Origin: Acidimicrobiia bacterium
GTDB lineage: Bacteria; Actinomycetota; Acidimicrobiia; Spongiisociales; UBA11373
Direction of reading: 5' to 3'
DNA length: 64,000 nucleotides
Assembly (NCBI GenBank): GCA_040902765.1
Contig: JBBDWO010000007.1
Location: 20,113-84,112, forward strand
Part shown: positions 821 through 58,419 of the stretch, piece after piece
Numbering within the stretch: the stretch's first letter is position 1
How the letters are laid out: each line of letters opens with the position of its first letter
Program-made: the position numbers and the translations under genes
The notes under the pieces: generated by a model
Databases searched by the model: none
What the model saw: the letters and a program-made list of their open reading frames with translations, nothing else
What the model was told of the DNA's origin: nothing

Positions 821-1783
821 CTACGGGCCAACCCTTGTCCCCGCGGTCCCCGCGATGGCCCGATCAATCCCCTCCACACTGGTGATCAGCGCACCACGGC
901 CGGTGGCCGACACATACGCGATACACGCTTCGATCTTGGGGCCCATCGAACCCTCCGGGAACTCGCCGGCGTCGAGGTATTGGTGCGCCTCGTCGACGGT
1001 GAGGCTGAGCAGGGGGCGTTGCTCCGCGGTCCCGAAGCCGAGATAGGCGGCATCCACCTCGGTGAGGATCACGAAACCGCGAGCGTCGATGGAGGTAGCG
1101 ATGAGGGCGCCGGTGCGGTCCTTGTCGATGACGGCCTCTACGCCGTAGGTGGTGCCGTTGGGGCCGTGTGCCACCGGGATGCCACCGCCGCCTCCGGCGA
1201 TGACGATGGCCCCGCTGCGGGCGGCATCGAGGATCGCTCCGATCCCGATGACCTCGAGCGGCGGCGGTGACGGCACGACTCGTCGGACTCCCCTGCCGGG
1301 AACCTCGACCGTCTCCCAACCACGGGCGGCGGCCAGCGTTGCGGCCTTCTCAATCGGGTAGAAGGGTCCGACCGGCTTTGTGGGTCTGGTCATCGCCGGG
1401 TTCTCCGGGTCGACCACCACCTGGGTGACGATCGGTGCGACCGCCACTTCCCTGCCCGCGCCGCGCATCGCGTCCCCGATCGAGCGGGCGAGCAGGTACC
1501 CGATGCTGCCCTGTGTCTCCGCGACCAGCACGTCGAGCGGGTCTACCGGTACCTCGTGGTGGGCTGCTTCGGCACGCAGCAGCCCGCGACCCACCTGGGG
1601 CCCGTTGCCGTGCACCAGCACCACGCCCGTGTCTTCGGGGAGGAGAACGGTGAGGGCGGCGGCGAAGGCGGCGGCGTTGCGCTCGGCCCGGCCCGGGTCA
1701 CCGGCGTCCGGGAGTAGGGCGTTGCCGCCGAACGCCACCACAAGCGGCCCGCCGTGGGACGCCCACAGACGGCGGTCAGGCAT
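821..1783 (-). CDS. arcC: carbamate kinase
   Basis: 320-aa ORF with an ATG start. It has amino-acid-kinase-fold motifs typical of carbamate kinase: VVAFGGNALL, VLVHGNGPQVG, IAGGGGGIPV, VIDKD. Confidence 0.85.
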   Translation of the reverse strand: MPDRRLWASHGGPLVVAFGGNALLPDAGDPGRAERNAAAFAAALTVLLPEDTGVVLVHGNGPQVGRGLLRAEAAHHEVPVDPLDVLVAETQGSIGYLLARSIGDAMRGAGREVAVAPIVTQVVVDPENPAMTRPTKPVGPFYPIEKAATLAAARGWETVEVPGRGVRRVVPSPPPLEVIGIGAILDAARSGAIVIAGGGGGIPVAHGPNGTTYGVEAVIDKDRTGALIATSIDARGFVILTEVDAAYLGFGTAEQRPLLSLTVDEAHQYLDAGEFPEGSMGPKIEACIAYVSATGRGALITSVEGIDRAIAGTAGTRVGP

Positions 1784-3075: not shown

Positions 3076-3111
3076 GTAACGAGTAGGAAGTAGCGAGTAG
3101 CGAGTAGCGAG
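3076..3111. repeat. heptamer array (GTAGCGA, the inverse of GCTACTC; 5 units)
   Basis: GTAACGA GTAGGAA GTAGCGA GTAGCGA GTAGCGA. Confidence 0.85.
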
Positions 3112-3120
3112 ACCGAGGTG

Positions 3121-3310
3121 AGCCTCGCGACGCGTCTGGCCTCCCCCTCCGTCAGCGACCTCCGGTCGCTGCCACCTCCCCCTGCGGGGGAGGAGACCGC
3201 GCGATCAGGTCCTTTTGCGGTTCCTCCCCCCGAAGGGGGGAGTACCTGACGGCGTAGCCGTCAGGGGAGGGGGGAGGGCGATCGCTACGCAGGCATCGCT
3301 GCGCGTCTGG
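3121..3310 (+). repeat. MITE-like element, full copy (U1+U2)
   Basis: Same architecture as 579-750. Inner hairpins here are CAGCGACC-TCC-GGTCGCTG (3153-3171) and CCTGACGGC-GTA-GCCGTCAGG (3245-3265). Confidence 0.8.
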
Positions 3311-7902: not shown

Positions 7903-7940
7903 AGAAAGATCGTACCGGCCGAAGGCCGGTCCGATCCGGC

Positions 7941-7970
7941 GCGATTCGCGGTTCGCGGTTCGCGATTCGC
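7941..7970. repeat. heptamer array (GCGRTTC, 4 units)
   Basis: GCGATTC GCGGTTC GCGGTTC GCGATTC GC. It is inverted relative to the 7984-8013 array. Confidence 0.85.
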
Positions 7971-7983
7971 CAGAACGCCTCTT

Positions 7984-8013
7984 GCGAATAGCGAATAGTG
8001 AATAGCGAATAGC
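7984..8013. repeat. heptamer array (GCGAATA, 4 units)
   Basis: GCGAATA GCGAATA GTGAATA GCGAATA GC. Confidence 0.85.
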
Positions 8014-8029
8014 GCCTAGGGTTTTCCCT

Positions 8030-8869
8030 GTGTCCGATCCCGGCTCCTCGTCCGCCATCCGCTCCTGTTACCGGCATCCCCACCGCGATACCCGGTTGTC
8101 GTGTTCTGAGTGCGGGCGGCCGATCTGCGTCGACTGCGCCATCGATGCCGCGGTGGGTCAGAAGTGCGCCGAGTGCTCGGCACCCGATGGTCGGCACCGG
8201 GTGATCGACCGGGCCCAAATCAAGGGCCATGTGCGCGGCGCCACGCCCTTCACCTACGCATTGATCGTGATCAACGTCGTGGTGTTTCTGGCCGGGCAGT
8301 CGAACCCCGACCTCGGGAGGCGGCTCATCCTCGACTTCGCCCACCACCCGGAGCTGGTCTCGGCGGGTGACTGGTACCGGCTGGTGACGGCGATGTTCCT
8401 CCACGGCAGCGTCATGCACCTGCTGTTCAACTCGTGGGCGCTCTGGCTGTTCGGTGCGGCGATCGAGCGGCGCTTCGGGTCGCCCTCCTTCCTGGCCCTC
8501 TACCTCGCCTCCGGGATCGCCGGGAGCACCGCGTATCAGCTGACCGGCTCGTCGTTCGCCGTGGGCGCCTCCGGCGCCATATTCGGGCTGTTTGGCGCCC
8601 TCCTCGCCGCCACCTACCGCCAGCGGCACAGCCCGGCGGGTCGTGCCGCCTTCGGCCAGTTGGCCATGCTGCTCGCCATCAACCTCGCTCTCCCGTTGCT
8701 CGTCCCGAACATCGCCTGGCAGGCCCACCTCGGGGGGCTGGTTGCCGGCATGGTCACCGCCGCCGGCTGGGACCGACTCCCTCTCACCGGCGGCGGCTCC
8801 GGCGGCAGACGCGTCGCTGTCGCCTTTGCCGTCCTGGTAGTCGCCGCCGCCATCGCCCTCCTGTTCTGA
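8030..8869 (+). CDS. rhomboid family intramembrane serine protease with an N-terminal zinc ribbon
   Basis: N-terminal CYRHP..CSECGRPICVDC, catalytic-Ser block VGASGAIFG, a His in QAHLGGL, and multiple TM helices. Confidence 0.85.
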   Translation: MSDPGSSSAIRSCYRHPHRDTRLSCSECGRPICVDCAIDAAVGQKCAECSAPDGRHRVIDRAQIKGHVRGATPFTYALIVINVVVFLAGQSNPDLGRRLILDFAHHPELVSAGDWYRLVTAMFLHGSVMHLLFNSWALWLFGAAIERRFGSPSFLALYLASGIAGSTAYQLTGSSFAVGASGAIFGLFGALLAATYRQRHSPAGRAAFGQLAMLLAINLALPLLVPNIAWQAHLGGLVAGMVTAAGWDRLPLTGGGSGGRRVAVAFAVLVVAAAIALLF

Positions 8870-8950
8870 GGGCCTCGCGACGCGTCAGCCCTCCCTCTCC
8901 GTCATCGGCCGGCGGCCGATGCCACTTCCCCCTTCAGGGGAGGGGACCGT
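8870..8950 (+). repeat. MITE-like element, U1 half copy
   Basis: GGCCTCGCGACGCGTCAGCCCTCCCTCTCC terminus, inner hairpin CATCGGCC-GGC-GGCCGATG (8903-8921), then CCACTTCCCCCTTCAGGGGAGGGG. Confidence 0.75.
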
Positions 8951-11005: not shown

Positions 11006-11100
11006 TTCCCCTCTCTCCCCCCGTAGGGGGGAGTACCCGACGGCGGAGCCGTCAGGGGAGGGGGGAGGGCGAACGCTACGCAGCCCCCGCGACGCGGCCG
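11006..11100 (+). repeat. MITE-like element, U2 half copy
   Basis: CTCTCCCCCC-GTA-GGGGGGAG hairpin, CCCGACGGC-GGA-GCCGTCAGG hairpin, GGGGAGGGGGGAGGGCG, and a CGCGACGCG end. Confidence 0.75.
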
Positions 11101-14601: not shown

Positions 14602-14630
14602 TAACGGAAGCGCCGAAGGCGCTTCCGTTA
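14602..14630 (-). other. perfect 13-bp stem-loop in the purA upstream region
   Basis: TAACGGAAGCGCC-GAA-GGCGCTTCCGTTA. Its 3' arm runs into the GTTATTC heptamer array. It lies 39 nt upstream of the purA ATG. Confidence 0.4.
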
Positions 14631-14650
14631 TTCGTTATTCGTTATTCGCT
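14627..14650. repeat. heptamer array (GTTATTC, 3 units)
   Basis: GTTATTC x3 followed by GCT. It is inverted relative to the 14705-14734 array. Confidence 0.8.
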
Positions 14651-14704
14651 AGGTCTCGCATACAGCAGTACCTATCAGATCAACGCCTCAGCAGGAACCG
14701 CCTT

Positions 14705-14734
14705 GCGAATAGCGAATAGCGAATTGCGAATCGC
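14705..14734. repeat. heptamer array (GCGAATA-type, 4 units)
   Basis: GCGAATA GCGAATA GCGAATT GCGAATC GC. Confidence 0.85.
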
Positions 14735-14735
14735 C

Positions 14736-14760
14736 GGGATCTGACCGAAGGTCAGATCCC
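14736..14760 (-). terminator. stem-loop overlapping the yjbQ-like stop codon (possible terminator)
   Basis: GGGATCTGACC-GAA-GGTCAGATCCC, a perfect 11-bp stem. There is no clear U tract. Confidence 0.35.
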
Positions 14761-16615: not shown

Positions 16616-16643
16616 GAGAGGGGCGAGGGGCGAGGGGCGACTG
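16616..16643. repeat. heptamer array (GCGAGGG, 4 units)
   Basis: GAGAGGG GCGAGGG GCGAGGG GCGACTG. It fills most of the 45-nt gap between two genes. Confidence 0.75.
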
Positions 16644-31769: not shown

Positions 31770-31797
31770 GGCTACCTGCTGCCGGCTACCGGCTACC
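31770..31797. repeat. heptamer array (GGCTACC, 4 units)
   Basis: GGCTACC TGCTGCC GGCTACC GGCTACC. Confidence 0.75.
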
Positions 31798-31837
31798 GCC
31801 GAAGGCGGGGAGGGGGGAGGGCTTACGCGTCGCGAGC
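31795..31837 (+). repeat. MITE-like element, 3'-terminal fragment of U2
   Basis: ACCGCCGAAGGCGGGGAGGGGGGAGGGCTTACGCGTCGCGAGC, which is identical in its core to 701-727. Confidence 0.7.
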
Positions 31838-31842
31838 AAGCG

Positions 31843-31894
31843 GCTACGACTCGCTACTCGGTAACCGCTACTCGCTACTCGCTACTCGCTACTT
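31843..31894. repeat. heptamer array (GCTACTC, about 7 units)
   Basis: GCTACGA ctc GCTACTC GGTAACC GCTACTC GCTACTC GCTACTC GCTACTT. It overlaps the lgt 3' end and stop codon. Confidence 0.85.
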
Positions 31895-32693
31895 CGTCCC
31901 TCGGCCCTCTCTTCTCCCGCCACACCAGGAAGGCCACCGCGCCGAGGGTCACCAACAGTGACACCCACCCGTTGCGGCTGAGGCCAAACAGTCGGAAGCT
32001 GGTGTCGGTGCGCAGCAGCTCGAGGCCGAAGCGGATGGTGCCGTACGAGATGAGGTAGCACAGAAACAGGCTGCCGCGGCGTAGGGTGAAGCGCTTCTCT
32101 ACCCACAGCAGGGCGAAAATGGTGGCGACGCTCCACAGCGACTCGTACAGGAACGTCGGGTGGAAGGTGGCGAATTCGGCGAACTGGGGAGGCCGTCGAT
32201 GCGGGGCGATCTCCAACGCCCACGGCAGGGTGGATGGCGTGCCGAATAGCTCCTGGTTGAAGTAGTTGCCCCAGCGCCCGATCGCCTGGGCCGCGGGTAG
32301 TCCGAGCGCCACCGCGTCCAAGAACGCCGGAAAGTCGCCCTTGTGACGCCGGATGGCCCACACCGCCCCGAGGATGCCGCCGGTGAGGCCACCGAACATG
32401 GCGATGCCGCCCTCCCAGATGCGGAACACGCCGAGCCAGTCACCCTCGAAGCGGTCCAACCGGTTGATCACATAGGCGAAGCGGGCGCCGGCGAAGCCGA
32501 TGACGATCGCCCACATGGCCGTCTTACCCGCCACCTCCGGGTCCCCGCCGAATCGCTCGTAGCGCCGCACGGTGATCGTGTAGGCGGTGGCGACGGCGAT
32601 CCCCATGAGGATGCCGTAGATGTGGATGGTCAGCGGGCCGAGGTCGATCGTGTTGAACGGCGGCGACGGGATCGATGCGAGCAGCGTGGTCAC
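31875..32693 (-). CDS. lgt: prolipoprotein diacylglyceryl transferase
   Basis: 272 aa. IHIYGILMGIAV, GARFAYV and the Lgt signature GRWGNYFNQELFG. The last three codons and the TAG stop lie inside a GCTACTC heptamer array. Confidence 0.9.
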   Translation of the reverse strand: MTTLLASIPSPPFNTIDLGPLTIHIYGILMGIAVATAYTITVRRYERFGGDPEVAGKTAMWAIVIGFAGARFAYVINRLDRFEGDWLGVFRIWEGGIAMFGGLTGGILGAVWAIRRHKGDFPAFLDAVALGLPAAQAIGRWGNYFNQELFGTPSTLPWALEIAPHRRPPQFAEFATFHPTFLYESLWSVATIFALLWVEKRFTLRRGSLFLCYLISYGTIRFGLELLRTDTSFRLFGLSRNGWVSLLVTLGAVAFLVWREKRGPRDEVASSE

Positions 32694-33040
32694 GACTCGT
32701 CCGCCCGGAACTCCTGATACGCCTCCCAGGCCCGGGGACCGTAAGTGGCTGCCGGCCCGCCGCCCATCGACAAAGCCACCGCCAGGCCCTCAGCCACCTC
32801 TTCGGGCGTGGCGCCAGCCCGTGCTGCCTTCTTGGCATGGGAGGCTATGCACCCGTCACACTGCTCGGACACGGCGATGGCGAGCGCCATCACCTCCTTG
32901 AGCCGGGCGGGGATCACCCCATCCTCGGTGGCAGCGGAACTCATCGCGACGAACCCAGACCACGTCTCACCCATCGCCTCGCGCAGTTCCAACGCCGGTC
33001 CCCGCAGATCGGCGAGCACATCGTGCCAGTGGGTGGTCAT
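32690..33040 (-). CDS. carboxymuconolactone decarboxylase family (AhpD-like) protein
   Basis: 116 aa. AhpD-type CxxC in SEQCDGCIASH. 4-nt overlap with lgt. Confidence 0.8.
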   Translation of the reverse strand: MTTHWHDVLADLRGPALELREAMGETWSGFVAMSSAATEDGVIPARLKEVMALAIAVSEQCDGCIASHAKKAARAGATPEEVAEGLAVALSMGGGPAATYGPRAWEAYQEFRADES

Positions 33041-33086
33041 GAGCGGGGATGGTAGAGGTCAAAGAGTGGCCAGTGGTCCAGCCACC

Positions 33087-33110
33087 GGCTACCCGCTACC
33101 GGCTACCGGC
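33087..33110. repeat. heptamer array (SGCTACC, 3 units)
   Basis: GGCTACC CGCTACC GGCTACC GGC. It contains the TAG stop of the four-helix-bundle gene. Confidence 0.8.
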
Positions 33111-33465
33111 GACGGGGTGTGAGGCGCTGACCGAGAGCACCCAGCATCGACCGAACGAGTCGTACATTCTCGCGCAGGTCGGCGTGGGTGGCGGGGTCGA
33201 CATACCCCAGGTCCGCAGCCAAACGGAGCTGGTACTCGACCTCGTTCGCCGATCCGACTGAGTAGCGAACAAAGCGAGCAAAGTCCCTATCAGAGCCGCG
33301 GCCTGCGCCCTCCGAGATGTTCGACGCGATCGAGGCGGCCGCCCGACGAGTCTGCTGAGTCAGGCTGAATCGCTCGGCCTTCGGATACTTCTGAGTGACG
33401 GCATACACCCGCAGTGCAACCCGATGCGCTTCTTGCCAGACCCTGAGCTTCTCGTAATCGGCCAC
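33103..33465 (-). CDS. four-helix-bundle protein (23S rRNA intervening-sequence protein / Avd-like family)
   Basis: 120 aa. Characteristic pattern L.VWQ.A....VY..T..YPK.ERF.L..Q.RRAA.SI..NI.EG, then GSANEVEYQL. The GTG start and the TAG stop both lie next to or inside heptamer arrays. Confidence 0.8.
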   Translation of the reverse strand: MADYEKLRVWQEAHRVALRVYAVTQKYPKAERFSLTQQTRRAAASIASNISEGAGRGSDRDFARFVRYSVGSANEVEYQLRLAADLGYVDPATHADLRENVRLVRSMLGALGQRLTPRRR

Positions 33466-33507
33466 GCCCGCTTCGTCGCATACCGATCGACCAAAGTCAA
33501 GATGCTC

Positions 33508-33557
33508 GGTGCTGGTAGCTGGTAGCTGGTAGCTGGTAGCTGGTAGCTGGCAGCTGC
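33508..33557. repeat. heptamer array (GGTAGCT, 7 units)
   Basis: GGTGCT GGTAGCT x5 GGCAGCT. It is the inverse complement of the 33087-33110 array (AGCTACC vs SGCTACC). Confidence 0.9.
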
Positions 33558-34490
33558 CTACTTCTTCTTGCCCCCGTCGTCCTCGAACACGCCCTTGATG
33601 GCTCCCAGGCTGCTCAGGATGCCGCTGGCTTCGTAGGGGAAGAACAGCTTGGTTGCCTGACCGTCGGCGATCTTGGGTAGCGCGTCCAAGTAGCGAATAG
33701 CGATGAGGTCGGGCGACGGGTCACCGGCGTGGATGGCGGCGAACACTCGCTCGATCGCTTGCGCCTCACCGTCGGCCACGGTGTGCAATTGGAACTTCTC
33801 CGCCTCGGCGACTTCCTTGATCGCCTGCGCCTGGCCCTGCGCCTCCAGGATGCGGGCCTCCTTGATGCCTTCGGCGCGAAGGATGGCGGCACGCTTCTCA
33901 CCTTCGGCCTCGGTGACGGTGGCACGACGATCACGCTCCGCCTTCATCTGACGGTGCATGGCCTCGGTGATGTCCGGTGGCGGGTCGATCCGCTGGATTT
34001 CGACGCGGACCACCCGGGTGCCCCACACGTCGGTGGCCTCGTCGAGGACGCTGCGTAGCTGGGCGTTGATCATGTCGCGAGAGGTGAGCGCCTCGTCCAA
34101 CTGGAGTTCGCCGACGATATTCCTCAGGTTCGTCTGGGCCAGCTTGGTGGCGGCGAGGATGAAGTTCGCCACGTTGTACTTGAGCTTCACCGGGTCGGTC
34201 GCCTGGTAGTAGACGACGGCGTCGACGGTGACCACCACGTTGTCCTTGGTGATGACCTCCTGGGGTGGAACGTCGACCACCTGTTCGCGCATGTCGATGC
34301 GGCGGATGCGCTCGATGAACGGGATGATGAAACGCAGTCCCGGGTCGACCATCCGGTCGAACCGGCCGAACCGCTCCACCAGTCCCTTTTCGAACTGGGT
34401 GACGATCTTGAGGGCCTTTGCTGCATAAATCAGCACCGCCAGGCCGATGACGATCAGTACCAGGAGTACCGGGTCTATGTCGAAGTTCAT
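33558..34490 (-). CDS. SPFH/band 7 (stomatin-like) protein
   Basis: 310 aa. N-terminal TM helix, then the SPFH core ([29 protein letters not shown]) and a coiled-coil A/E-rich tail. Confidence 0.9.
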
Positions 34491-34526
34491 CTCACCTCTC
34501 CTCGAGGGCCGGTGGTGTCGGCCCGA

Positions 34527-34961
34527 TCAATCGACTTTCTCGACGACAAGGCGGGTTCCCCGGATACCGGTGACCCGCACGGCGGCGCCCACCTCGAGGT
34601 CGTCCCCGTCGGTGGTGGCCCGCCAATCCTCGGTTTCGACGCGCACCCGTCCGGTGCCGGACTGTGGGTCGATGATCTCGGTGACCTTGCCTCTCTGCCC
34701 GAGCATGCGGTTGGAACCCATGAGGGGCGTGTCCTTGTCGATCTTCTTGACGAACCGCTGCAGCACGAAGAGTGCGATGAGGGAAACGGTGAGGAAGGTG
34801 AGCAACTGAACCAACGGCGCGACGCCAACCCAGGCGAGAACGGTGGCGACGAGGGCCCCGACGGCGAACGGAAGCATGAAGAACCCGGCGGTGACGATCT
34901 CACCGAATCCGAGGACCAGGGTCGCGATGACCCACACCCAGCGCCAGGTCTCATTGTCCAT
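34527..34961 (-). CDS. NfeD family membrane protein
   Basis: 144 aa. Two or three TM helices followed by an OB-fold tail (GRVRVETEDWRATTDGDDLEVGAAVRVTGIRGTRLVVEKV). This is the classic partner located upstream of an SPFH gene. Confidence 0.8.
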   Translation of the reverse strand: MDNETWRWVWVIATLVLGFGEIVTAGFFMLPFAVGALVATVLAWVGVAPLVQLLTFLTVSLIALFVLQRFVKKIDKDTPLMGSNRMLGQRGKVTEIIDPQSGTGRVRVETEDWRATTDGDDLEVGAAVRVTGIRGTRLVVEKVD

Positions 34962-35000: not shown

Positions 35001-35091
35001 GGGAAGGGGCGAGGGCCAGGAGGAACGATGGGCGAGGGACGAGGGGCCAGGGGCGAGGGGCCAGGATGGCGATGAGCGAGAACGAAGGCAG
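35001..35091. repeat. heptamer array (GGGGCGA/GGGGCCA-type, about 13 partly decayed units)
   Basis: GGGAAGG GGCGAGG GCCAGGA GGAACGA TGGGCGA GGGACGA GGGGCCA GGGGCGA GGGGCCA GGATGGC GATGAGC GAGAACG AAGGCAG. Confidence 0.7.
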
Positions 35092-35299
35092 GGCCTCGCG
35101 ATGGGTCAACCCTCCCCCTCCGTCTCGGCCCTTCGGGCCGATCCACCTCCCCCTTCGGGGGAGGGAACCGCGTTGGGAGGTCCCGCTTTGCGGTTCCTCG
35201 CCCTGAAGGGGTTGGGAGGTCCCGCTTTGCGGTTCCTCCCCCTGAAGGGGGGAGTACCGCCGAAGGCGGGGAGGGGGGAGGGCTGGCGCGTCGCGAGCG
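35091..35299 (+). repeat. MITE-like element, full copy with an internal 39-nt tandem duplication
   Basis: The termini GGGCCTCGCGATGGGTCAACCCTCCCCCTCC and GGGGAGGGGGGAGGGCTGGCGCGTCGCGAGC are mutually inverted. The inner hairpin is TCGGCCC-TTC-GGGCCGA (35125-35141). The duplicated unit GTTGGGAGGTCCCGCTTTGCGGTTCCTC.CCCTGAAGGG occurs at 35172-35210 and at 35211-35250. Confidence 0.8.
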
Positions 35300-35309
35300 G
35301 GGGGTTGCG

Positions 35310-35337
35310 CCCTCGCTACTCGACCCTCGCCCCCTAA
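35310..35337. repeat. heptamer array (CCCTCGC/TACTCGA, 4 units)
   Basis: CCCTCGC TACTCGA CCCTCGC CCCCTAA. It is inverted relative to 35001-35091 and contains the TAG stop of the 35334..36017 gene. Confidence 0.65.
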
Positions 35338-38007: not shown

Positions 38008-38059
38008 TTAGCCCTCCTCCGTCCGAACCCTTCGGGCCGATCCCCCCTCTTCGGGAGTC
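38008..38059 (+). repeat. MITE-like element, decayed U1 copy
   Basis: TTAGCCCTCCTCCGTCCGAACCCTTCGGGCCGATCCCCCCTCTTCGGGAG resembles 35107-35165 with several changes. It lies just downstream of the clpB stop. Confidence 0.5.
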
Positions 38060-40726: not shown

Positions 40727-40787
40727 GCCTGAGTTCTCGGAATGCTCGGGTCCCCGGGCCGGTTGGCCCTGAGAAAGAGGAGTCCCA

Positions 40788-41072
40788 TTGGCCAAGGCAT
40801 ATTGGAACGACACGCTGATCGCTGAGAGTGATGACACCGTCGTCGTCGAGGGCAACCACTACTTTCCCCGAGCCGCCATCGACGACACCTACTTTCGGGA
40901 GACCGACCATCACACGGTGTGCTCGTGGAAGGGCGTCGCCTCGTACTTCGATGTGACCATCGACGGCGAGATCAATTGCAATGCCGCCTGGTACTACCCG
41001 GAGCCGTCTCCGGCGGCCGAGCACATCCGCGGCCGGGTCGCCTTCTGGAAGGGCGTCAGGGTCGAGCAGTGA
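40788..41072 (+). CDS. DUF427 domain protein
   Basis: 94 aa. TTG start behind AAGAGGAG. Hallmarks VVEGNHYFP, TVCSWKG.ASYF, AAWYY and RVAFWKGV. Confidence 0.8.
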   Translation: MAKAYWNDTLIAESDDTVVVEGNHYFPRAAIDDTYFRETDHHTVCSWKGVASYFDVTIDGEINCNAAWYYPEPSPAAEHIRGRVAFWKGVRVEQ

Positions 41073-41096
41073 CCGGCGCAGGCAGAACGCCGGGGA

Positions 41097-41333
41097 ATGT
41101 CGAGTTCGAGAACTAACCGGCCGACCTCACGACGCGACCGTCCCCCTCCGTTCTTGGTGGAAAACGACCAGCACAGTGTGTGTCCCTGGAAGGGCACGGC
41201 CGCGTACTTCGACATAGTGGTCGACGGCCAGACCAACCGTGGGGCTGCCTGGTACTACGCCGATCCCAAGCCAGCCGCCGAGGAGATCCGAGATCGGGTC
41301 GCCTTCTGGAAGGGCGTGGCAGTCGAAGCCTGA
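41097..41333 (+). CDS. truncated DUF427 paralog (C-terminal half only; possible pseudogene)
   Basis: 78-aa ORF. Residues from FLVENDQHSVCPWKGTAAYFD onward align to the neighbouring DUF427. The N-terminal beta strands are missing, and the 5' part is replaced by a sequence resembling the repeat-element terminus. Confidence 0.5.
   Translation: MSSSRTNRPTSRRDRPPPFLVENDQHSVCPWKGTAAYFDIVVDGQTNRGAAWYYADPKPAAEEIRDRVAFWKGVAVEA
41125..41151 (+). repeat. terminus-like fragment of the MITE-like element at the 5' end of the truncated DUF427 copy
   Basis: CCTCACGACGCGACCGTCCCCCTCCGT compared with the element terminus CCTCGCGACGCGTCTGGCCTCCCCCTCCGT. Confidence 0.45.
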
Positions 41334-56313: not shown

Positions 56314-56341
56314 AGCCAGTGGCGAGGGGCGAGTGGCCAGG
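56314..56341. repeat. heptamer array (GGCGAGK, about 4 units)
   Basis: AGCCAGT GGCGAGG GGCGAGT GGCCAGG, directly after the ligC TAG stop. Confidence 0.7.
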
Positions 56342-56342
56342 G

Positions 56343-56550
56343 TCGCGTCATGGGGTCCACGTAGGGTTTGCCCTCCCCCCTCCCCGCCGCTCGCTTCGCT
56401 CCCGGCGGTACTCCCCCCTTCGGGGGGAGGGACCGCAAGAGAGAGGTGATGACCGGGAGTGCCGCCTCTGTTTGCGGTCCCCTCCCCTGAAGGGGGAGGT
56501 GGCAGCGGCCTCTGGCCGCTGACGGAGGGGGAGGGCTGACGCGTCGCGGG
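56343..56550 (-). repeat. MITE-like element, full copy in inverted orientation (left of DUF559)
   Basis: The reverse complement of the U2+U1 architecture. GCCCTCCCCCCTCCCC, CTCCCCCC-TTC-GGGGGGAG, linking stem GGGACCGCA...TGCGGTCCC, CCTCCCC-TGAA-GGGGGAGG, CAGCGGCC-TCT-GGCCGCTG (56503-56521), and a GGAGGGGGAGGGCTGACGCGTCGCG end. Confidence 0.8.
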
Positions 56551-56589
56551 GGGCTGGCAACTCGTTGTCAGACGAGACATTCTCTACGG

Positions 56590-56958
56590 ATGGCAAGGCC
56601 CCCTCGTGATCCGCTCGCCGCTGAGCGTGCCCGAACACTGCGGCGTAGGCAGACCAATGTCGAGGCTCGTCTCTGGGTCCGTCTTAGGGGCGGTCAGTTG
56701 GGCGTCCGATTCCGACGGCAGGTGCCGATGGGTCAGTGGATCGTTGACTTCGCCTGTTTCGCCCCCAAGCTCGTCATCGAAGTGGACGACGGGTCTCACG
56801 ATGGCCGGGACGAGTCGGAACGCACTCGGTACCTGGAGTCCTTGGGTTTTGCAGTGGCTCGTTTCGACAACAGGGACATCTTCGAGATCGACGTGGCGGT
56901 CCACGCCCTCGAAGTGGCGATAGCGGCACTGCGGAAGGGTGAACCGCTCCCTTGGTGA
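56590..56958 (+). CDS. DUF559 endonuclease domain protein (Vsr-like PD-(D/E)XK)
   Basis: 122 aa. LRRRQT..E..LW..LR, FRRQ..., YIVDF-like WIVDFAC, LVIEVDG-like LVIEVDDGSH, and G..V.RF.N. Confidence 0.85.
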   Translation: MARPPRDPLAAERARTLRRRQTNVEARLWVRLRGGQLGVRFRRQVPMGQWIVDFACFAPKLVIEVDDGSHDGRDESERTRYLESLGFAVARFDNRDIFEIDVAVHALEVAIAALRKGEPLPW

Positions 56959-56965
56959 TCGGTCC

Positions 56966-57333
56966 CTCTCGCGGGCCGACGCGTCGCGGGGTCTCCGTAG
57001 TGTTTGCCCTCCCCCCTCCCCGCCGCTCGCTTCGCTCGCGGCGGTACTCCCCCCTTCGGGGGGAGGGACCGCAGGAGAGAGGTGATGACCGGAAGTCCTG
57101 CCTCTGTTTGCGGTCCCCTCCCCTGAAGGGGGAGGTGGCAGCGGCCTCTGGCCGCTGACGGAGGGGGAGGGCTTCCTGCGGTCCCCTCCCCTGAAGGGGG
57201 AGGTGGCAGCGGCCTTGCCGCTGACGGAGGGGGAGGGCTTCCTGCAGTCCTTTCTGCGGTTCCCTCCCCTGAAGGGGGAGGTGGCAGCGGCCTCTGGCCG
57301 CTGACGGAGGGGGAGGGCTGACGCGTCGCGAGG
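56966..57333 (-). repeat. MITE-like element, inverted orientation, with the U1 module triplicated (right of DUF559)
   Basis: 56998-57172 is a near-direct repeat of 56361-56535. The U1 module recurs at 57111-57172, 57179-57238 and 57257-57318, separated by 6 nt and 18 nt. Confidence 0.8.
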
Positions 57334-57342
57334 CCCAATGAC

Positions 57343-57384
57343 TCCTGGTCCCTCGCTACTCGCTACTCGCTACTCGCTACTTCC
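57343..57384. repeat. heptamer array (TACTCGC, 6 units)
   Basis: TCCTGGT CCCTCGC TACTCGC TACTCGC TACTCGC TACTTCC. It is the inverse of the 56314-56341 array (AGCGAGT vs GGCGAGT) and contains the primase-polymerase TAG stop. Confidence 0.85.
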
Positions 57385-58363
57385 TCTTCTTGCTGGGCTG
57401 GACCCGACGCGGCTCTCCGGGTTGCTTTCGGTAGTGGGGGGGCCAGGGGGCGTCGCCCAAGCCGCGTTCTTCGTCGGCGGCCACCATGTCGAGGAGCGGG
57501 GTCAGGTCGCCCGGGTCGTCGTCGATGCCATCGGTGAGGTCCCCGACCTCGGCGAACCGGTCCTTGAAGCCCATCAGGTCGAGTGCCTGAGGGTCGATGC
57601 TGTCGAGTTCGTCCCAGGTGAAGGGGACCGAGACCAGTCCTGTCTGGCGAATGCTGTACGCCGAGGCGATCGTCTTGTCGCGGGCGTTCTGGTTGTAGTC
57701 GACGAACACGCCGCTCCGCTCCTCCTTCCACCATTCGGTGGTGGCGAGGTCCTCGGTGCGGCGTTCCAGTTCCCGACCGACCGTCAGAACAGCCCGACGC
57801 GCCTGGAAGTAGTCCCAGTCGGGCCGGATGCGCGCGTAGATGTGGATGCCGCGTGACCCGGACGTCTTCGGCCAGCCGACCAGGCCCTTCTCATCGAGGA
57901 GCGCCCGCGTGGCCCTGGCGACCTCCCGGCAATGGTCGAAGCCGAAGCCCTCGGTGGGGTCGAGATCGAAGCGCAGTTCGTCCGGATGGTCCAGGTCGTC
58001 GACTCGGGCCGTCCACGGGTTGAGGTCGATGACACCGAGTTGGACCTGCTCGACGATGTCGGCGACATCCTCGACATACGGCATCACTCCGGGCTGCGCC
58101 GACGGGAACTCGACCGGCGCCGAGTGAGTGATCGTCGACGGAGCCCGCTTGTTGAAGAAGAAGTCACCGCCGACACCATCCGGCCAGCGCTTCAGGGAGG
58201 TGGGCCGCCGGTCCACGCCTCGTACCGCGCCGTCGGCGCACATCAGGTAGTGCTCGGCCACGTCGAGTTTCGTCCAGCCGTGGTCGGGGAAGAGCACCTT
58301 GTCGGGACTGCTGACCCGCACGGCCCGCCCAGCCGCCTCCACCGTCGTTTCACTCTTGGCCAC
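57377..58363 (-). CDS. LigD-like primase-polymerase domain protein (Prim-PolC-like)
   Basis: 328 aa with a GTG start. SSPDKVLFP, LKRWPDGV.G..FF.KR, KTSGSRGIHIY and DYNQNARDKT motifs of NHEJ/BER archaeo-eukaryotic primase-type polymerases. The TAG stop lies in a heptamer array. Confidence 0.85.
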   Translation of the reverse strand: MAKSETTVEAAGRAVRVSSPDKVLFPDHGWTKLDVAEHYLMCADGAVRGVDRRPTSLKRWPDGVGGDFFFNKRAPSTITHSAPVEFPSAQPGVMPYVEDVADIVEQVQLGVIDLNPWTARVDDLDHPDELRFDLDPTEGFGFDHCREVARATRALLDEKGLVGWPKTSGSRGIHIYARIRPDWDYFQARRAVLTVGRELERRTEDLATTEWWKEERSGVFVDYNQNARDKTIASAYSIRQTGLVSVPFTWDELDSIDPQALDLMGFKDRFAEVGDLTDGIDDDPGDLTPLLDMVAADEERGLGDAPWPPHYRKQPGEPRRVQPSKKRK

Positions 58364-58371
58364 GCTCTGAG

Positions 58372-58419
58372 GCTATCGCTACTCGCTACTCGCTACTCGC
58401 TACTCGTTACTTGCTACGG
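58372..58419. repeat. heptamer array (GCTACTC, 7 units) filling a divergent intergenic region
   Basis: GCTATC GCTACTC x4 GTTACTT GCTACGG. It occupies 48 of the 64 nt between the primase-polymerase start and the hdeD-like start. Confidence 0.9.

Follow-up and report, generated by a model that had tools for sequence, protein, structure and literature searches.

Inverted heptamer arrays around a four-helix-bundle gene in an operon spacer of an Acidimicrobiia bacterium: a candidate hairpin cassette of the intervening-sequence type

Why should a small gene from a protein family first met in ribosomal RNA stand between two inverted heptamer arrays in the spacer of a protein-coding operon? The question is raised by a 64,000-nt stretch of DNA from an Acidimicrobiia bacterium (assembly GCA_040902765.1, contig JBBDWO010000007.1, positions 20,113 to 84,112; hereafter the window), in which a gene for an intervening-sequence protein (IVP) follows the gene for an SPFH/band-7 protein. 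To our knowledge, the very numerous proteins of PF05635/TIGR02436, to which this IVP belongs, have been without an assigned function since their discovery in rRNA intervening sequences (IVSs) in the early 1990s; IVP genes have also been noted within cas operons and, in candidate-phyla-radiation (CPR) bacteria, in insertions of the rRNA. The reading favoured here, with a probability of about 60%, is that the locus is an IVS-type hairpin cassette, i.e., an insert of ~480 bp without detected promoter, placed after the SPFH stop codon, with the IVP gene between inverted heptamer arrays; by analogy, it would be the operon-resident counterpart of the 23S rRNA IVSs that carry an open reading frame (ORF). 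The Coxiella IVS, a “selfish” element of 428 nt within 23S rRNA helix 45, has an S23p ORF, a 28-bp terminal stem and, upstream of the ORF, tandem GACAGAT heptamers in strain-variable number, at the first of which RNase III cuts (PMC4990558).

The cassette and its protein

The IVP gene, as read from the sequence, is a 363-nt ORF on the minus strand with a GTG start and 120 codons. An earlier note on this DNA had described it as a gene of the IVS/Avd family bracketed by inverted heptamer arrays, the first of which supplies its stop codon, and the sequence, Tandem Repeats Finder (TRF) and the match to PF05635 all bear this out. On the plus strand, the array to the left of the gene (33084-33110) reads ACC GGCTACC CGCTACC GGCTACC GGC (TRF: period 7, 3.9 copies, 90% matches), and the array to the right (33508-33556) consists of five perfect GGTAGCT units with a degenerate unit at either end (TRF: 6.6 copies, 97% matches, score 85). 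Reverse-complemented, the right unit reads AGCTACC and agrees with the left unit, SGCTACC, at 6 of 7 positions, so that the arrays are inverted with respect to each other. The TAG stop of the IVP gene (33103-33105) falls within the third left unit, the 3′ arm also encoding the final three arginines of the protein, and a single nucleotide lies between the right array and the TAG that ends the SPFH gene (33558-33560). When the upstream flank is aligned locally with the reverse-complemented downstream flank, the score is 41 (z = 11.5), against 16.9 ± 2.1, with a maximum of 22, in 60 control windows; in minimum free energy (MFE) folds of 33075-33570 the arrays are paired as a closing stem on either strand (–229.6 and –228 kcal/mol; z –4.3 and –4.4). 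Flank alignment and predicted folds together show an IVP ORF enclosed by complementary, stem-forming termini, and tandem heptamers, (CAGCTAC) repeated ~7 times on the sense strand, stand upstream of the ORF, both as in ORF-bearing IVSs.

The cassette has the same orientation as the upstream nfeD and SPFH genes. Neither a sigma-70-like promoter nor a strong Shine-Dalgarno sequence was found in the leader (33466-33507), a promoter scan of 32600-34700 returned 0 sites, and the sole terminator-like match in the scan of the cassette lies inside the right array itself. The GC content at third codon positions is 0.72 in the IVP gene vs. 0.80-0.90 in the neighbour genes, which was counted as a sign of foreignness. 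The cassette does not lie within a 23S rRNA helix (45, 25 or 9), being flanked by the genes for SPFH and for the CMD/AhpD-like protein; the window has no match to any Rfam family, rRNA included, and the PADLOC models of defence systems gave no match.

The protein matches PF05635 over residues 5-109 of 120 (E 5.8e-36, 123.4 bits, cutoff 33.8) and TIGR02436, “four helix bundle protein,” with 116.2 bits (cutoff 24), and the closest solved structure is XCC0516 of Xanthomonas (PDB 2gsc, E 1e-20, 5 chains). Of the conserved family motif GxxRxxxSxxxNxxE (PMC3936711), QQTRRAAASIASNISEG has the R, S, N and E correctly spaced, but Q in place of G in the first position. From these similarities the protein is predicted to have a four-helix-bundle fold and to form a homopentameric ring; XCC0516 has been described as a toroidal homopentamer (PMC4990558). 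The window contains one IVP gene only. Its nearest homologue among 5.8 billion proteins is 59% identical, and an exact-sequence look-up found the protein on no other contig, so that the same cassette is not demonstrable in two contexts. Most homologues were found on contigs of 0.5-3 kb (the majority 1-2 kb), a shortness which suggests that the flanking repeats break assemblies.

Avd, the accessory protein of diversity-generating retroelements (DGRs), is a homologue of IVP and a nucleic-acid-binding pentamer. The earlier note had drawn this connection, and it stands as far as homology of fold is concerned, but the Avd models match only weakly and below their cutoffs (PF22296, 25.6 bits, cutoff 40; NF033474, 30.4 bits, cutoff 80) and no reverse transcriptase was found nearby. 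Membership in a DGR was therefore rejected on these scores and because the ORFs scanned, at 25.3-40.7 kb, are housekeeping genes without a reverse transcriptase; template and variable repeats were not searched for. Neither reverse transcriptase nor transposase domains, whose absence nearby had been remarked before, occur among the ORFs of that interval, the rest of the window not having been fully scanned.

The array-gene-array layout is typical of IVP genes across phyla

The generality of the layout was examined in two samples of loci, each made up of the best matches to its query: 80 loci with homologues of the window IVP (31-54% identity), from Planctomycetota, Chloroflexota, Acidobacteriota, Bacteroidota, Desulfobacterota, Gemmatimonadota, Gammaproteobacteria, Clostridia and others, and an independent 80 loci retrieved with XCC0516. 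The 200 nt upstream of each gene were aligned with the reverse complement of the 200 nt downstream, and the flanks were called significant when the score lay above all 60 controls with z > 4, the controls being windows of the same locus rather than other genes. RNA duplex energies of 150-nt flanks proved too noisy in GC-rich DNA (window z –0.5) and were replaced by this local alignment. Significantly inverted flanks were found in 45 of 81 loci of the first sample and 44 of 77 of the second, 89 of 158 in total, a count from which some clear cases are missing because the gene boundaries of the retrieved loci are only approximate. Among the 89 loci, 65 have a matched arm whose best period is 7, and 15 one whose best period is 8. 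A strict tandem-repeat detector reported an array in 32/80 upstream and 26/80 downstream flanks, compared with 0.034 per equivalent window elsewhere in the same loci. These data show that the array-gene-array layout is typical of the IVP family across phyla.

The units vary widely among lineages (for example TTAGCGG, GGGACTTA, GTAGGCA, AGGGAGCA and GGTGAATN), and an AGCT core is only modestly enriched among the closest relatives of the window protein (4/18 vs. 2/72, p 0.014). The arms have a polarity: in 78 of 90 loci (p 5e-13) the 5′ arm is rich in G and poor in C, which, the arms being inverted, is valid on both strands. In 111 loci the IVP gene runs in the direction of both its neighbours and in 10 it is antisense to both, in keeping with a promoter-less passenger of operons. 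All three frames of the 5′ arm contain stop codons in 35/91 loci vs. 11.6 ± 2.9 in shuffles; a role of the arm as a three-frame stop was nevertheless dropped, the feature being enriched but not universal, and absent from the 5′ arm of the window. No Rfam family was found in 20 other IVP loci.

The junction between accB and accC, whose spacer is usually of 10-20 nt (78 gammaproteobacterial junctions), allows the insert to be compared with its absence. The spacer is found empty (~10 nt), with gene-less paired arrays, with an intact or a decayed IVP gene, or with a gene of the PDDEXK_3 family (Table 1); the XCC0516 orthologues of Xanthomonas vasicola and Pseudoxanthomonas lie here, within (GGGAATN)4 ... 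(NATTCCC)4. Compared with the empty site, arrays and gene appear together, cassettes decay in place, and a second cargo family shares the layout. The locus with the PDDEXK_3 gene (L267) has an IVP cassette as well, which lies in the spacer that follows accC and is built of another unit, (GGGRCTA)5 ... (TAGYCCC)10. Among 58 metagenomic PDDEXK_3 loci, 23 have significant inverted flanks, with a period of 9-10 in 20 and of 8 in 3, compared with 7-8 for IVP, so that the repeat type tracks the cargo family. A CAC(A/G)GA core recurs in many PDDEXK_3 arms from different metagenomic lineages (L321-L400).

Arrays of this kind have been described repeatedly in other contexts. Rehm et al. reported that Xanthomonas has ~186 GGGAATC arrays, with 70 convergent pairs in X. 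campestris, which are transcribed and lie between co-oriented genes near stop codons; they read these arrays as G-quadruplex motifs, XCC0516 and accB being unmentioned (PMC4692102); heptamer arrays are also known as GGGGAYT in Nostoc (PMC4692102) and TAACTGA in Beggiatoaceae, cyanobacteria and Bacteroidetes (PMC4679880), and heptanucleotide sites have been reported in Geobacter metallireducens (PMC2700814). They resemble the arrays of the window as tandem 7-nt units in spacers near stop codons that differ between close relatives and often form convergent inverted pairs, and the accB-accC spacer places an XCC0516 orthologue inside one pair of the GGGAATC type. The papers cited take them for G-quadruplex or regulatory motifs, and none mentions an enclosed gene family; the unit of the window differs, being GCTAYYN, and the 5′ arm of the cassette is C-rich instead of G-rich. 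A literature link between the IVP family and heptamer arrays was found only in the single-species description of Coxiella, subscription-only papers lying outside the search. No paper in the searchable literature describes a family-wide link of IVP genes to inverted heptamer arrays, the Coxiella IVS being the precedent for the array-ORF layout.

The insertion site in relatives and the arrays of the window

The SPFH protein of the window is 81-87% identical to proteins from Acidimicrobiia metagenome-assembled genomes (MAGs), and the site downstream of its gene is occupied in relatives by other IVP alleles with different units and in either orientation, by arrays alone, or by other sequence (Table 1). 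No relative was encountered in which the gene stands there without arrays; in the terms of the earlier note, such a relative would have told against the cassette, as would further copies of the family in this genome lacking period-7 arrays, of which none came to light either. That proposal holds in so far as the gene with both arrays is present or absent as a unit at orthologous sites; mobility itself we infer from this presence and absence. Empty sites consisting of paired arrays, which had been predicted, were found twice in the window (7940-8014 and 14624-14731) and in L137, L252 and L255. As to the housekeeping, operon-like run in which the cassette was said to sit, the neighbours are indeed NfeD, SPFH, CMD/AhpD-like and Lgt genes, but the AhpD-lgt block is inverted relative to 10/10 relatives, among the loci L086-L160, in which AhpD was found. 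Their order, regarded as ancestral, is nfeD> SPFH> <lgt <AhpD M20> (e.g., L096, L089, L092, L093, L094, L160), that of the window SPFH> IVP> AhpD> lgt> M20>, and both junctions of the inversion (33078-33556 and 31770-31893) carry arrays of one unit family (GCTACYN heptamers). The farther neighbours are haem-synthesis genes, a TetR regulator, an M20 peptidase, an AMIN-domain protein, an HtrA-like protease and ClpB.

Table 1. Positions and main attributes of the cassette, of host genes and array sites in the window, and of the spacers compared with it
Locus	Feature or site	Position	Strand	Description or evidence
Window	5′ arm	33508..33556	-	Sense (CAGCTAC)n, 5 perfect + 2 degenerate units; pairs with 3′ arm in MFE folds
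Window	Leader, 42 nt, 5′ arm to GTG start	33466..33507	-	Sequence; promoter scan
Window	IVP gene	33103..33465	-	Intact; predicted 120-aa four-helix-bundle protein; putative family motif RRAAASIASNISEG
Window	3′ arm	33078..33110	-	Sense (GGTAGCS)n, ~4 units + 1 degenerate; extent from flank alignment
Window	nfeD	34527..34961	-	Pfam; synteny in 80 Acidimicrobiia relatives
Window	SPFH/band-7 gene	33558..34490	-	Pfam; synteny in 80 Acidimicrobiia relatives
Window	CMD/AhpD-like gene	32690..33040	-	Pfam; downstream host gene
Window	lgt	31875..32693	-	Pfam; downstream host gene
Window	Second junction of inverted AhpD-lgt block	31770..31893		(GCTACCG)3, GC-rich module, (CGCTACT)5 overlapping lgt stop; same unit family as arms
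Window	Gene-less inverted pair	7940..8014		(CGCGRTT)4, 11-nt loop, (GCGAATA)4
Window	Gene-less inverted pair	14624..14731		(CGTTATT)3, 54-nt loop, (GCGAATA)4; between UPF0047 gene and purA
Window	Direct (CTCGCTA)n array pair around ligD primase-polymerase gene	57352..58417		TRF and array listing
L082	SPFH-downstream (SPFH 86%)			(CCGGGTG)~14, IVP gene (45% identical to window IVP), (CACCCGG)n
L083	SPFH-downstream (SPFH 85%)			(GCCAGAT)6, (GACGGCG)5, IVP gene in opposite orientation, (GCATCTG)5
L087	SPFH-downstream (SPFH 83%)			Three different arrays, no gene
L137	SPFH-downstream (SPFH 69%)			Empty pair: (TTGCTAG)3, 27-nt loop, (CTAGCAA)5
L157	SPFH-downstream (SPFH 72%)			Solo (GAGCTAC)5.5 array, the window's own unit; no IVP
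L081	SPFH-downstream (SPFH 86%)			Short 14-nt tandem repeat, then apparent VapBC-type toxin-antitoxin pair
L084	SPFH-downstream (SPFH 85%)			GC-rich repeat modules
L241, L243	accB-accC, Xanthomonas, Pseudoxanthomonas			IVP cassette, 446-449 nt
L250 (MAG)	accB-accC	1170..1600		Same cassette, frameshifted IVP gene, degenerate GGGAATG/CATTCCC arms; looks like in-place decay
L252	accB-accC, Rhodanobacter			(GGGGAAC)4, 43-nt loop, (GTTCCCC)4; no gene
L255	accB-accC, Arenimonas			(GGTGAGC)n, 30-nt loop, (GCTCACC)n; no gene
L267	accB-accC	1088..1600		(CCACGAAA)3, PDDEXK_3/GxxExxY gene (PF13366, E 1e-36), (TTTCGTGG)3; period 8

Within the window, period-7 runs of at least 18 nt number 19, nearly all intergenic, compared with a mean of 3.8 and a maximum of 10 in 50 dinucleotide-preserving shuffles; the two arrays of the cassette are far beyond chance, yet they are not unique within the window. 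Most window arrays are variants of the unit GCTAYYN (GCTACTC, GCTACCG, GCTACCA, GCTATTC, GCGATTC, GTTATTC), and arrays of this type occur at about 14 sites, solo, as gene-less inverted pairs, as a direct pair and at the edges of GC-rich modules. The arms are therefore members of a window-wide heptamer family and not specific to the cassette, so that the terminal inverted repeats of the earlier note are inverted, with their 6/7 match, but are not the private ends of a transposon. The gene-less pair at 7940-8014 has a predicted fold of –50.1 kcal/mol on the plus strand (z –5.4) and of –39.8 on the minus strand, and that at 14624-14731 of –49.0 kcal/mol on the plus strand (z –5.0). In all three inverted pairs of the window (7930-8025, 14618-14740 and 33075-33570) the plus strand pairs better, G.U replacing A.C or other mismatches, though most flanking genes are on the minus strand. 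The TAG stop of the ligD primase-polymerase gene is supplied by its (CTCGCTA)n array, as an array supplies that of the IVP gene and of lgt.

Other repeats of the window were recorded alongside these arrays. GC-rich composite modules occupy the spacers at 546-760, 3086-3305, 8836-8946, 11015-11096, 31794-31848, 35057-35310, 38013-38046, 56344-56551 and 56980-57333; they are built of hairpins such as CCCTCCCCTGAAGGGGGAGG, GGGGAGGGGGGAGGGC and CGCGACGCGTC, often lie between heptamer arrays and are present in the relative L084. To this module family belong two exact-register copies of a 39-nt unit, 97% identical, in the NfeD-AMIN spacer (35172-35250). At 56344-57173, a DUF559 ORF (~56560-56960; PF04480, E 1e-28, Vsr-like endonuclease fold) lies between 194-nt direct copies of a GC-rich module that are 95% identical, a further small gene embedded in a repeat-laden spacer. 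A second array type, (GAGGGGC)n, is found at gene ends, often beside GC-rich modules (553-570, 16616-16640, 35005-35065, 56321-56342), and a 168-nt direct repeat of 73% identity at 40898-41326, spanning two adjacent small plus-strand ORFs (40773-41072 and 41073-41333), is probably a tandem gene duplication.

Readings of the cassette and their consequences

The likeness on which the IVS reading draws is that to the ORF-bearing 23S IVSs (Coxiella IVS/S23p, Leptospira): the same protein family in the loop, complementary termini forming a long stem, no mobility gene and a sporadic distribution (PMC4990558). The window element differs in that it stands in the spacer of a protein-coding operon and has longer array arms (~4 and 7 units), and excision by RNase III would apply to it by analogy only. 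In a mechanism of this kind, the cassette would be read through from the promoter of nfeD-SPFH, and the arms would pair into a long but imperfect stem of double-stranded RNA, which RNase III might cut as it does the Coxiella rRNA element; the cut would set the IVP message free and part the cistrons on either side without harm to them. Inserts could then survive in the spacers of essential operons because processing would leave the flanking cistrons usable. At the DNA level the arrays are probably prone to recombination and slippage, which would explain the turnover of units, the changes in copy number, the loss of genes to leave empty hairpins, the differences in orientation and the AhpD-lgt inversion.

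Several observations weigh against the IVS reading. No target-site duplication is visible by inspection outside the arms, and no insertion machinery was found among the scanned ORFs. Arrays without a gene or in direct orientation imply that arms could exist for reasons unrelated to the gene, and with its C-rich 5′ arm the cassette belongs to the minority in polarity. In Coxiella, the IVS protein seems not to be made (PMC4990558). In the stem of the window, the sense (minus) strand has an A.C mismatch every 7 nt where the antisense strand has G.U, and over 91 loci G.U-compatible mismatches number 95 in the sense and 131 in the antisense orientation, without enrichment in the sense. Selection for pairing in the sense RNA is thus unsupported by this count, and pairing may matter in the DNA or on either transcript.

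A transposon or miniature inverted-repeat transposable element (MITE) with terminal inverted repeats was rejected, there being no visible target-site duplication and, among the neighbours scanned, no domain of a transposase. The element resembles MITEs and integron gene cassettes as small promoter-less or non-autonomous units with inverted or hairpin-forming ends that lie between genes and have empty derivatives. It differs from them in that it shows neither a visible target-site duplication nor a single site of the attC kind, that the scanned ORFs include no transposase or integrase, and that its ends are made of tandem arrays whose unit differs from cassette to cassette.

The strongest of the other explanations, though in itself rather improbable, is a partnership such as that between the REP-associated tyrosine transposases (RAYTs) and the hairpins (REPINs) formed by repetitive extragenic palindromes (REPs). 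The IVP pentamer would bind the dispersed heptamer-array hairpins and help to spread or maintain them, the array-flanked gene being the master copy and the gene-less pairs its non-autonomous derivatives. RAYT genes, too, are flanked by the REPs they are thought to move (PMC3116915), and the window indeed has both dispersed intergenic hairpin-forming repeats and a gene flanked by inverted copies of them. The about 14 GCTAYYN-type arrays of a window with a single IVP gene accord with such a partnership, as do the nucleic-acid-binding pentamer of the homologue Avd, the tracking of cargo family by repeat type, the two adjacent L267 cassettes with different units, and the recurrence of the IVP-flanking unit within ~3 kb in 10/59 loci vs. 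1% for unrelated loci. IVP identity also correlates with unit similarity (Mantel r 0.19, reached in 0/2000 permutations; 0.18 after partialling out GC content), but the correlation is weak and without correction for host phylogeny, and L039 and L233 share a unit at 37% protein identity. Moreover, RAYTs are Y1/HUH transposases with a plausible part in catalysis; IVP offers none, being a four-helix bundle of 120 aa that has no nuclease or recombinase motif and matches only PF05635 and, weakly, bAvd; REPs are single palindromes and not tandem arrays; several unit variants coexist in a window with one IVP gene; and the abundance of arrays in Xanthomonas (PMC4692102) likewise counts against such a partnership.

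Less probable still is that the gene is a chance tenant, the arrays being ordinary intergenic hairpin or simple-sequence elements (terminators or mRNA stabilisers, similar to REPs or to bacterial interspersed mosaic elements) between two of which an IVP gene landed or survived without any functional tie. The inverted flanks of more than half of the IVP genes surveyed (89/158) and an array density ~10-fold higher beside IVP than elsewhere in the same loci are hard to reconcile with this view, and so are the joint arrival of arrays and gene where the ancestral spacer is ~10 nt, the dependence of array period on cargo family and the use of different units by neighbouring cassettes of one genome; what speaks for it are the arrays that are solo, in empty pairs, direct around the ligD polymerase gene or around GC-rich modules, the lone array of L157 at the SPFH-downstream position, and the genome-wide, same-polarity paired arrays between co-oriented genes of Xanthomonas (PMC4692102). 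An invertible or slippage-driven switch, in which the arrays would flip the gene or adjacent blocks, or change in repeat number, and so vary the expression of the gene or of downstream cistrons within a population, is very unlikely, since the co-orientation of 111 loci vs. 10 argues for flipped states being rare or short-lived and no recombinase gene occurs among the ORFs scanned, despite the reversed IVP gene of L083, the inverted AhpD-lgt block with arrays at both junctions and the heptamer number that differs among Coxiella strains (PMC4990558).

The survey begun from the window cassette suggests that the puzzle of the IVP family and that of the heptamer arrays are one, the usual habitat of IVP being the loop of a hairpin of inverted 7-8-nt arrays just after stop codons in operon spacers, those of essential operons such as accB-accC included; that the rRNA location which gave the family its name is the exception; and that the PDDEXK_3 family of small proteins shares the layout with a repeat type of its own. 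RNase III processing of the stems, binding of the protein to its repeats and the origin and decay of cassettes thereby become testable in culturable bacteria such as Xanthomonas. The repeats probably break metagenomic assemblies, and they may also explain the “CRISPR-associated” signals reported for the IVP family. A wider and quite speculative proposal, which we regard as unlikely in its full extent, is that array-bounded hairpin cassettes form a widespread, unnamed class of bacterial elements whose cargo proteins recognise their own repeats, the IVP pentamer being a repeat-binding factor by which the hairpins are maintained or spread, and the intergenic heptamer arrays (short tandemly repeated repetitive (STRR)-type, GGGAATC, TAACTGA) products of decay. 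If true, this would assign a first function to a protein family that is among the largest still uncharacterised, and would account for where the arrays come from.

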